Assembly (NCBI RefSeq): GCF_003334335.1
Contig: NZ_QOWQ01000010.1
Source of the DNA: Escherichia coli
GTDB lineage: Bacteria; Pseudomonadota; Gammaproteobacteria; Enterobacterales; Enterobacteriaceae
DNA length: 64,000 nucleotides
Strand: one strand, 5' to 3'
The notes under the pieces were generated by a model that did not search any database, was not told the origin of the DNA, and was given only the letters and a program-made list of their open reading frames with translations. Both the position numbers and the translations under genes were made by a program. The first letter of the stretch is position 1, and each line of letters opens with the position of its first letter. Positions 22,914 through 24,041 of this stretch are shown here, piece after piece.

Positions 22914-24041
22914 TTAACGGCGTCTATAGCCTTCCTCTAGCACCGCCTGTGTTCGAACGAGTTCATCTGCGAGTCGTTTCTCATCAGGTAGTTGCATCTT
23001 ATATTCGCTTGCCAGAACGGTGTTAGGCAAACCTGCCAGAGCATAATGCGCTTCTCCGGCTCCTTTCTCTGCACAGAGAACCAGACCGATGGGCGGATTT
23101 TCATCCGGTAGCGTCCAGTGCTCTTTGGCGTAGTTGAGATACATATTCATCTGTCCGGCATCGCTATAGCTGAATTTGCCCACTTTTAGATCGACGATTA
23201 GCAGGCAGCGTAAACGGCGGTGGAAAAACAGCAGATCGACACGAAACCAGTTGTCATCAATGCGTAACCTTCGCTGCCGACCAACAAAGGCAAAATCATC
23301 CCCAAGTTCCAGCATGAAATCCATCAGGTGGTTGATCAGCGCCTCCTCAAAATCGGATTCTGAATATTCATCTTTCAATTCCAGAAATTCGAGCACAAAG
23401 GGATCGCGTATCGCCTGTTGCGGAAGAATATGCGTCTCGGCAGGAGCGTGTTGTTGCAGCATGGCTGATTTGTCATGTGACAGTAGTGTCCGCTCATAAA
23501 ACTGGGTCGCAATTTGCCGCTCTAGCTGGCGAACAGACCAGCCACAGCGGAGCGTCTCTTTTTCATAAAAGCTGCGGGCGTCAGCGTTTTTAACGGAAAG
23601 TAAACGGACGTAGGTGGACCTGGGCAAGGGGAAAGATTTGGCAGACAGCGTCTGCCAAATCTTTGCCGATGGGAATTCTGCAGACGGTGTCTGCGGAATT
23701 CCCAATGGTGTTAATTCGCCAGACATTGTCTGGCGAATTTCAACATGTTGAAAAAAGAGGTAAAAAAGCCTCATTTGGCGTAAGTTTTTTGCAGAGAACC
23801 CACGCTTATACCTTAGACATAAATCCTTTGATAGTCGCTTGATTAGCTGCGCACCATACGCAGCCCTGGCCTCGCCACCTTGTTCAAATTCGACAATTCG
23901 TCGGCCAATTTCCTGGTACGTCGCGGTCATTAACGCGTTAACGCTACGTACCGTTTCCGTCCGGGCGCTATCGACCAGATGAATAATACCGTCGTGGATT
24001 TGCTGGTAGCCTGCTGTGGTTCCTTCTGAGAGCGATTCCAT
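22914..24041 (-). CDS. yhcG: DUF1016-family protein YhcG (predicted PD-(D/E)xK nuclease-like fold)
   Basis: 375-aa ORF; C-terminal region has a D...D-x-K arrangement (RVDLL...LLIVDLKVGK) compatible with a PD-(D/E)xK core; N-terminal region carries a triplicated palindrome-encoded segment. Confidence 0.75.
   Translation of the reverse strand: MESLSEGTTAGYQQIHDGIIHLVDSARTETVRSVNALMTATYQEIGRRIVEFEQGGEARAAYGAQLIKRLSKDLCLRYKRGFSAKNLRQMRLFYLFFQHVEIRQTMSGELTPLGIPQTPSAEFPSAKIWQTLSAKSFPLPRSTYVRLLSVKNADARSFYEKETLRCGWSVRQLERQIATQFYERTLLSHDKSAMLQQHAPAETHILPQQAIRDPFVLEFLELKDEYSESDFEEALINHLMDFMLELGDDFAFVGRQRRLRIDDNWFRVDLLFFHRRLRCLLIVDLKVGKFSYSDAGQMNMYLNYAKEHWTLPDENPPIGLVLCAEKGAGEAHYALAGLPNTVLASEYKMQLPDEKRLADELVRTQAVLEEGYRRR
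23632..23664. repeat. CAGAC-N3-GTCTG palindrome unit 1 inside yhcG (perfect 15-bp arms)
   Basis: aaagatttggcagac-agc-gtctgccaaatcttt. Confidence 0.85.
23671..23703. repeat. CAGAC-N3-GTCTG palindrome unit 2 inside yhcG (15-bp arms, one mismatch)
   Basis: gggaattctgcagac-ggt-gtctgcggaattccc. Confidence 0.85.
23713..23739. repeat. CAGAC-N3-GTCTG palindrome unit 3 inside yhcG (perfect 12-bp arms)
   Basis: aattcgccagac-att-gtctggcgaatt. Confidence 0.85.

Follow-up and report, generated by a model that had tools for sequence, protein, structure and literature searches.

A phase-locked palindrome in the coding sequences of yhcG and its relatives in the DUF1016 family of predicted nucleases

Introduction

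What keeps a short palindrome in place inside the coding sequence of a predicted nuclease, and is it the protein, the mRNA or the DNA that is held to this pattern? The question is raised by yhcG, a gene at positions 22914-24041 (minus strand) of a 64,000-nt stretch of Escherichia coli DNA (RefSeq assembly GCF_003334335.1, contig NZ_QOWQ01000010.1), the whole of which we call the window. The open reading frame (ORF) starts with ATG and encodes 375 aa; RefSeq annotates identical DNA as yhcG, “PDDEXK nuclease domain-containing protein”, in agreement with the ORF proposed in an earlier sequence-only reading of this DNA. That reading dwelt on the protein as a poorly understood nuclease and mentioned a triplicated palindrome in a side remark. 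The palindromes are the unusual part of yhcG. The nuclease prediction is not new: Kosinski et al. (2005, PMC1189080) predicted YhcG to be a PD-(D/E)XK nuclease, and the Pfam domain is named accordingly. A full-text literature search combining yhcG or DUF1016 with “palindrom” found no description of the element, and a family-wide coding palindrome is apparently undescribed in the literature.

Results

The three palindromes noticed in the N-terminal half of yhcG are indeed there. In the sense direction, the first copy is P3 (23713-23739, AATTCGCCAGACAtTGTCTGGCGAATT), which encodes EIRQTMSGEL; it is followed by P2 (23675-23699, ATTCTGCAGACggtGTCTGCGGAAT, encoding IPQTPSAEF) and P1 (23636-23660, ATTTGGCAGACagcGTCTGCCAAAT, encoding IWQTLSAKS). 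All are 25-27 nt long and in frame, they recur with a period of 39 nt (13 codons), and they correspond to aa 101-139. By chance, 0.03 copies of the palindrome core, CAGACNNNGTCTG, would be expected in the 64-kb window; there are five, all at the yhcG locus. The count of three is thus correct for the interior of the gene, but two extragenic copies, P0 and P4, had been missed.

The palindrome is a feature of the family rather than of this allele. Our sample consisted of 80 loci encoding YhcG relatives (38-53% identity) that were fetched by a related-locus search and came from Bacteroidota, Campylobacterota, Verrucomicrobiota, Planctomycetota, Cyanobacteria, Desulfobacterota, Nitrospirota, Dependentiae and other phyla. 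The element is present in 67 of these 80 DUF1016 genes, in one (36 genes), two (26), three (4) or four (1) copies, and P3 is homologous to the palindromes of those 67 genes in both position and codon phase. Strong palindromes occur at 4.0 per kb between gene nt 230 and 480, versus 0.086 per kb in the rest of the gene and 0.116 per kb in the flanks. When synonymous codons were shuffled within genes, the best arm fell from an observed mean of 10.8 (median 12) to 6.5, and the observed arm exceeded all 20 shuffles in 54 of the 80 genes. The phase is invariant: the central base is at codon position 1 in 95/95 odd-length copies, and 37/37 inter-copy spacings are multiples of three.

The copies define a compact consensus, AATT-N3-SRGWC-RNY-GWCYS-N3-AATT, of 25-27 nt. 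At distances 2-12 from the centre, between 84 and 95 of the 95 copies have a Watson-Crick pair, and most of these positions show two to four pair types; pairing drops to 57/95 at distance 13 and is random beyond, and at distance 1 it does not rise above expectation. The element is therefore a sharply bounded stem of 11-12 bp around a 3-nt centre. Its sequence is conserved at the outer AATT and the inner GWC, third-codon positions included. When 108 copies are aligned without gaps, 93.4% of the cells pair, versus 65.9% in shuffles, and the covariation score of 0.658 (0.164 in shuffles) was reached by 0 of 500 shuffles; sliding the register of this alignment leaves only 26-47% paired.

Closer to E. 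coli, Salmonella, Citrobacter and other E. coli alleles carry a palindrome at the same position, and their arms differ yet are compensated: CGCCAGAC/GTCTGGCG, CTGCAGAC/GTCTGCAG and TGGCAGAC/GTCTGCCA, as well as CTCCAGAC/GTCTGGAG and GTGCAGAC/GTCTGCAC. The encoded peptide varies across the family (IVQTLSAQF, IRESLTPEF, ILRSATAKF, ILGTLSQEF), and the distant members P0211, P0247 and P0193 carry the palindrome in the same phase without any QT.S peptide (IVHPLGAQF, DIRDAARLES and IPHAVRGEF occur instead). In the AlphaFold model of the E. coli protein, the palindrome-encoded residues 101-135 have a predicted local distance difference test score (pLDDT) below 50, and the palindrome is thus predicted to lie in a disordered linker of DUF1016_N.

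We also searched 2.9 million viral contigs blindly for the pattern AATTNNNCAGACNNNGTCTGNNNAATT, leaving the N positions free; this returned 26 sites, and the N positions at these sites are nearly all complementary. Fourteen of the 26 are in intact DUF1016 genes; the others fall in short stretches of non-coding DNA, several of them recognisable as DUF1016 relics. The idea that phage genomes carry the palindrome as a target site was rejected on this result, as the few sites found all belong to these two categories.

At which level does the constraint act? If selection worked on the sense RNA, wobble pairs should dominate the transition-type mismatches. Among 1188 stem pairs, however, the mismatches comprise 16 G.T, 24 A.C and 30 others, and the probability of 16 or fewer G.T is 3.5e-8 if wobble were tolerated at 80%. 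The loop triplets come in balanced reverse-complement pairs (AGT 27/ACT 20, AGC 13/GCT 11, GCC 7/GGC 6), and the element therefore has no strand polarity. Copies within one gene differ at the variable stem positions while each remains self-complementary, a pattern that speaks for intrastrand pairing or copying between the arms, and against a dimeric operator recognised by its sequence. The extragenic relic copies, moreover, remain perfect palindromes while their flanks decay. Given Watson-Crick-only pairing, symmetric loops and a free peptide, we conclude from these sequence comparisons that the constraint probably acts on the self-complementarity of the DNA, not on the mRNA or the protein.

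Several familiar classes of repeat were considered and set aside. The palindromes do not read as intrinsic terminators: they have no U-tract, and a terminator scan finds none at P0-P3. Positions +14 to +18 of the element are A-rich. Rfam gave no match at E<=1 in window positions 22000-31000, and only chance microRNA hits among seven related loci. A dispersed repeat of the repetitive extragenic palindromic (REP), miniature inverted-repeat transposable element (MITE) or Rickettsia palindromic element (RPE) type was rejected, as a 32-nt P3/P4-type query finds a median of 2 and a maximum of 5 places per E. coli genome, each site matching on both strands; the listed matches for which features were shown are all in yhcG/DUF1016 or in unannotated DNA. 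Type III toxin-antitoxin systems (ToxIN-like) have tandem repeats upstream of the toxin gene that act as RNA. This candidate was also rejected, because the present repeats are inside the coding sequence and their pairing statistics are of the DNA type. Elsewhere in the window, hairpins with 11-bp arms are centred at 5664, 15605 and 62486; their GC-rich stems and A/T-run flanks (e.g. AAAACCGACGCCAAAAGCGTCGGTTTT) make them look like ordinary bidirectional terminators, unrelated to the yhcG palindromes.

The DNA around the palindromes is conspicuously unstable. A hypervariable mosaic block, at 23572-23802 (minus strand; gene nt ~240-470) in allele identity profiles, is centred on P1-P3. Outside gene nt 240-470, where their identity is only 43-67%, the yhcG genes of K-12 and E28 are 97% or more identical. 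Similarly, the DUF1016 genes of a Verrucomicrobia metagenome-assembled genome (MAG; L058) and of Thauera phenylacetica (L060) are 96-100% identical, but 38-71% at nt 150-465, and other close pairs dip at the same place. Such large local divergence in near-identical genes implies replacement of blocks of ~250-300 nt, not faster point mutation. Close alleles also differ in the number of 13-aa units (1, 2 or 3) exactly at the palindrome site. Phylogenetic incongruence between the N- and C-terminal parts of 70 proteins (r=0.65) is only suggestive, and the DNA identity profiles are more informative.

The extragenic copies mark further rearrangements. P0 (ATTCTGCAGACAcTGTCTGCAGAAT; palindrome 22874-22898, with flank 22855-22913, minus strand) starts 15 nt beyond the yhcG stop, and with its flank it fills the entire nanQ-yhcG intergenic space. 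Directly after the stop codon, a stretch of 42-47 nt aligns with nt 292-338 of the Salmonella and Citrobacter yhcG genes, and a read-through variant, P0021, translates P0 as RILQTLSGES. P4 (ATTCGCCAGACAcAGTCTGGCGAAT; palindrome 30013-30037 within a relic at 29945-30037, minus strand) ends 15 nt beyond the gltD stop and is 92-96% identical to the intragenic palindromes (blastn). It is followed by a decayed DUF1016_N fragment, which tblastn aligns as IRQTVSGES..CFLANAA*AFDLSYN with ILQTVSGES..CHLAQLAKSFPLPWS of P0016. K-12 therefore holds the relic of a second yhcG-like copy beside gltD. The spacer between gltD and gltF (29494-30052) is ~560 nt of non-coding DNA, with P4 and the decayed fragment at its gltD end.

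The nanQ-gltD interval (22855-30052) is polymorphic in E. coli. Because yhcG lies downstream of gltD in Salmonella and Citrobacter as well, its position is ancestral. E. coli O157 has the order gltD-yhcG-P0-nanQ with one intragenic palindrome, and K-12, which has yhcG, yhcADEF and gltF here, additionally carries the gltF-yhcADEF segment and P4. L001 and L002 carry yhcG alone, with the palindrome present once or twice inside it; one locus has a truncated yhcG beside a transposase gene (L004); another has an IS1 insertion (hit H1); and L003 is reduced to a bare palindrome. In strains without yhcG, a single palindrome is left between the outer flank of P0 and that of P4, as would be expected after recombination between two palindrome copies. 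At a few loci, family-type palindromes (ATT...GWC...GWC...AAT) are found outside the DUF1016 ORF, namely 85 nt downstream (L059, 5249-5275), 115 nt upstream (L068, 3828-3854) and 1.1 kb downstream (L013, 6159-6185), and these may be relics like P0 and P4. A viral contig, L119, has 179-nt direct repeats (4686-4864 and 6008-6186, 94% identical), each with a DUF1016-type palindrome. They flank a cassette of two genes (176 aa and 126 aa) that resemble a toxin-antitoxin pair; a tyrosine recombinase gene adjoins it. Relic sequence similar to these repeats is also present in L106 and L118.

The protein itself conforms to its family. YhcG is a two-domain protein, with a helical DUF1016_N domain and a predicted C-terminal PD-(D/E)XK nuclease domain of the RecB/Cas4/Hjc type, and both Pfam profiles match significantly and in the canonical order. 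DUF1016_N (PF17761, E=1.3e-36) covers aa 19-184 (23490-23987, minus strand), with 166 residues matched onto a 137-position model; it is interrupted by the low-pLDDT linker at aa 101-135. YhcG_C (PF06250 “PDDEXK nuclease domain”, E=1.6e-56) covers aa 208-360 (22962-23420, minus strand). The strings RVDLL and LLIVDLKVGK, from which the sequence-only reading had proposed a nuclease core, are both in the protein (...FRVDLLFF..., ...LLIVDLKVGK...), and the proposal is supported by the Pfam match, by the conserved catalytic residues and by the predicted fold. The predicted catalytic codons, E245, D269, D284-L-K286, Q297 and Y301 (23139-23309, minus strand), follow the motif of PMC1189080. Among 24 homologues (35-79% identity), E245 is invariant, residue 284 is D or E, and D269, K286, Q297 and Y301 are at least 90% conserved. 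The putative active site is thus an E-D-(D/E)xK plus QxxxY motif, as in RecB/Cas4-type PD-(D/E)XK nucleases, with its predicted residues intact.

A sequence search of the PDB with YhcG gave nothing meaningful (best E=0.28), and its fold therefore had to come from prediction. The structure prediction that the sequence-only reading had called for gives an alpha-beta-beta-beta-alpha-beta core of the PD-(D/E)XK type, and the predicted fold matches Cas4, Dna2, NucS, Hjc, BpuSI and YraN-like proteins. NCBIfam holds no model that matches YhcG. PADLOC's defence candidate PDC-S02 does (hidden Markov model PDLC04807, E=2.8e-131, full-length match covering 9-370); PDC-S02 is a candidate by genomic association only, and in the literature it turned up only in survey lists, without a reported phage test. 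Measured against the published YhcG/DUF1016 family (PF06250 plus PF17761; COG4804; PMC1189080), YhcG is the name-giving member, with both domains and the E-D-(D/E)xK motif. We find no difference at the protein level, and the intragenic palindrome goes unmentioned in the published family descriptions that we consulted.

That family comprises 21,241 representatives of 50%-identity clusters (E<=1e-3). A phage origin of yhcG is unlikely, as relatives are encoded in only 16 of 50,697 phage records. The statement that yhcG stands alone without a partner holds in the window, where its neighbours are nanQ (convergent) and the fimbrial gene yhcF; neither defence genes nor the hsdM/hsdS pair of a type I restriction-modification (R-M) system adjoin it. 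It does not hold for the family. The order hsdM-like methylase, DUF1016 gene, hsdS recurs in 5/5 sampled tight operons (L029, L058, L062, L066, L085), and phmmer detects hsdM and hsdS neighbours at 15 and 10 of the 80 loci, respectively, counts that are lower bounds and not rates. An SNF2/PLD-type helicase adjoins the DUF1016 gene in L018, L024 and L055, together with a PglX-like methylase in the latter two. Other DUF1016 loci have housekeeping neighbours, as in E. coli. Elsewhere, “DUF1016 family protein” was reported to be 17-fold enriched beside the target genes of programmed inversions, mainly in R-M systems (PMC9881135). Within this very large family, whose genes are often found in R-M or defence operons, E. 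coli yhcG is an orphan copy.

Two observations on these loci deserve mention. In L058 and L060, the 3' end of hsdM as well as the DUF1016 gene is 96-100% identical outside the palindrome block, although the first comes from a Verrucomicrobiaceae MAG and the second from Thauera; this near-identity would mean a recent inter-phylum transfer or a MAG binning error. In the window, the yhcF-yhcG intergenic region spans 24042-24225. A stationary-phase small RNA, G0-10703, is reported from here; its transcription diverges from that of yhcG, whose 5' untranslated region it overlaps by 128 bp (PMC7967276).

Discussion

In this report, we found an ancient, phase-locked DNA palindrome within the coding sequences of the DUF1016 family that is kept at the nucleotide level, and the block surrounding it is a hot spot of replacement and copy-number change. 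How such an element persists is a separate matter. The explanation we favour, tentatively and with somewhat less than even confidence, is that the palindrome folds into a hairpin or cruciform, at which the DNA is broken or copied across, that the gene's own Hjc/RecB-like nuclease is a candidate for its recogniser, and that the benefit may be self-regulation or diversification of the linker. The palindrome would extrude as a hairpin or cruciform, at which breaks or template switches would preferentially occur. They could be caused by the junction-resolvase-like nuclease encoded by the gene itself, or by a hairpin nuclease of the host. Repair by gene conversion or intrastrand copying would then maintain perfect arms while altering the number of copies and replacing blocks of ~250-300 nt. 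The same repair could leave relic palindromes at rearrangement junctions, namely P0, P4 and the single copy in strains without yhcG. For the cell, the gain might be self-recognition and autoregulation of a dangerous nuclease, or a more diverse linker; both are possible.

A number of points weigh against this explanation. The DNA-versus-RNA argument rests on ~40 mismatched pairs, and P1-P3 would form very stable hairpins in the mRNA (-67.6 kcal/mol, versus -27.7 for shuffles; z=-10.9), which may have a role of their own. The 80 loci belong mostly to one large clade and were retrieved via one set of peptide patterns; 13 of them, and P0259 in addition, have no palindrome element. The rows of the covariation alignment were chosen for palindromy, which makes the paired percentage partly circular; the positional density, the synonymous shuffles and the mismatch counts are free of this selection. 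Extragenic copies like P0 and P4 are no general feature of the other species among the 80 loci. Disordered linkers are expected to be variable, and diverged alleles could have exchanged these blocks by ordinary recombination in which the palindromes played no part. Finally, cutting or hairpin binding by YhcG is a predicted activity only, and the literature search turned up no enzyme assay of it.

Which other explanations could account for the element? Quasipalindrome correction by intrastrand template switching during replication is known from E. coli mutation hot spots. The palindrome could be a functionless, self-perpetuating product of this process, which would copy arm changes in an unconstrained linker with no selection for a hairpin. 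The strict Watson-Crick pairing without tolerance of wobble, the flip-flop symmetry of the loops, the unconstrained and disordered peptide, the variable copy number and the perfection of relics outside genes would all follow. Palindromes are prone to deletion, though, and this one has kept a homologous position and phase in 67/80 genes of many phyla; nor would correction alone suffice to fix the stem at 11-12 bp with sharp ends or to conserve AATT and GWC at third-codon positions. We therefore consider this account rather doubtful. A hairpin acting in the mRNA, be it as a translational pause, as an element of processing or stability, or as a site at which the nascent protein binds for autoregulation, strikes us as distinctly unlikely. 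Nucleases often need tight post-transcriptional control, the element is always within transcribed coding sequence and in phase, and the calculated stability of the P1-P3 RNA is in its favour. Selection on RNA is nevertheless difficult to reconcile with G.U being no commoner than A.C (16 vs 24), with strand-symmetric loop triplets, with the lack of a U-tract, terminator signature or Rfam match, and with perfect relic palindromes that persist in non-coding DNA. Least tenable of all is the proposal that a repeated short linear peptide motif, I-x-Q-T-x-S-x-x-F, is the real feature and the palindrome a by-product. QT.S-like peptides do occur in many homologues, but the peptide varies freely, even to IVHPLGAQF, while the nucleotides stay complementary with two to four pair types per position; synonymous shuffles lose the palindrome, and third-codon positions are constrained. 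We rejected the proposal on the shuffles, the codon-phase and pairing statistics, and the covariation.

The arrangement of the E. coli locus invites another suggestion, that the palindrome is a site-specific recombination site of the att or attC kind and that the intragenic copies are scars or landing pads. In K-12, P0 and P4 bracket a 7.1-kb segment of yhcG, fimbrial genes and gltF, strains lacking the segment keep one palindrome joined to the outer flanks, and the repeats of L119 flank a cassette next to a tyrosine recombinase gene. Yet the E. coli locus contains no recombinase gene, flanking copies are absent from Salmonella and Citrobacter, where yhcG likewise lies downstream of gltD, extragenic copies are rare among the 80 loci, and a homologous intragenic position across phyla fits common descent, not repeated insertion. 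This suggestion is improbable. A further question concerns the role of YhcG, which might be a housekeeping nuclease of replication and repair that acts on stalled or branched intermediates, and not a defence protein or R-M accessory. Hu et al. (2009, PMC2672614) found that deletion of yhcG is synthetic-lethal with hypomorphic dnaB, dnaN and parE, and the predicted fold is similar to that of Dna2 and of the Holliday-junction resolvases Hjc and YraN (PMC1189080). On the other hand, the same group reported that YhcG co-purified with HsdMRS and McrABC, as well as with IntF/IntS and PinE (PMC2672614). Further, yhcG is accessory in E. coli: of 5415 genomes, only 3346 contain at least 80% of the locus, and in some genomes the gene is interrupted by insertion sequences or replaced by a bare palindrome. 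Its relatives, moreover, are embedded in R-M and defence operons and enriched in defence contexts. The accessory distribution and the genomic contexts favour a defence role, while the synthetic lethality favours repair; on balance, we regard the housekeeping role as unlikely.

The favoured explanation, breakage of or copying across a hairpin or cruciform, has partial precedents. Hot spots of template switching at quasipalindromes and palindrome-stimulated deletion are known in E. coli, and the yhcG-type element resembles them in its perfect arms, loop flip-flop, copy-number change and deletion end points at palindromes. Those hot spots are sporadic, however, whereas the DUF1016 element occupies one homologous codon position across phyla and has conserved end and inner bases. 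Antigenic variation at pilE/pilS of Neisseria proceeds by gene conversion that is initiated at a G-quadruplex. Common to both systems are a non-B DNA structure in or near the gene, variable blocks centred on that structure and short silent relics nearby; here, though, the structure is a palindrome and not a G-quadruplex, we found no array of donor cassettes, and the variable part is the disordered linker of a cytoplasmic nuclease. Rickettsia palindromic elements are mobile, in-frame palindromic repeats that are dispersed in many unrelated genes. They share with the present element a palindromic DNA that is translated within proteins, but the latter occurs only at the nanQ-gltD locus among the E. 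coli genomes searched, and only at a homologous site of one gene family.

Comparable likenesses exist on the side of the protein. PrrC is a latent anticodon nuclease that is held by EcoprrI, and its accessory gene is nested in a type I R-M operon. The position of YhcG relatives between hsdM and hsdS, and the co-purification of YhcG with HsdMRS, suggest by analogy a latent nuclease linked to a restriction complex. YhcG differs from PrrC in its predicted DNA-type PD-(D/E)XK fold, which is not that of a HEPN RNase, and E. coli yhcG is far from hsd. From Hjc, YraN and Cas4/RecB it differs by an extra helical N-terminal region of ~200 aa. With respect to Hjc and YraN, YhcG has the QxxxY motif of the RecB/Cas4 kind, and junction cleavage by YhcG is hypothetical.

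These facts raise the possibility, which we rate as doubtful, that DUF1016 genes are self-addressed modules of nuclease and site, in which an obligatory hairpin or cruciform in the coding sequence would be recognised or cut by the encoded enzyme. If so, the module would autoregulate a dangerous defence nuclease, or it would trigger break-initiated gene conversion that diversifies the linker and reshuffles the neighbouring DNA. It would then be a DNA-structure-based counterpart of pilE-type variation in a restriction-associated gene. As a protein, YhcG is unexceptional within a published family of predicted nucleases; the novelty lies in a cross-phylum, phase-locked, covarying nucleotide element inside its coding sequence. 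For E. coli, the element accounts for the polymorphic spot between nanQ and gltD, with its repeat-number alleles of yhcG and the palindrome left where the gene was lost. More broadly, the persistence and recombination of short perfect palindromes, and the way they shape genes, can be studied here in a natural system. For a family of more than 21,000 clusters at 50% identity that is common in R-M and defence loci, its own hairpin is a concrete first candidate for a substrate.

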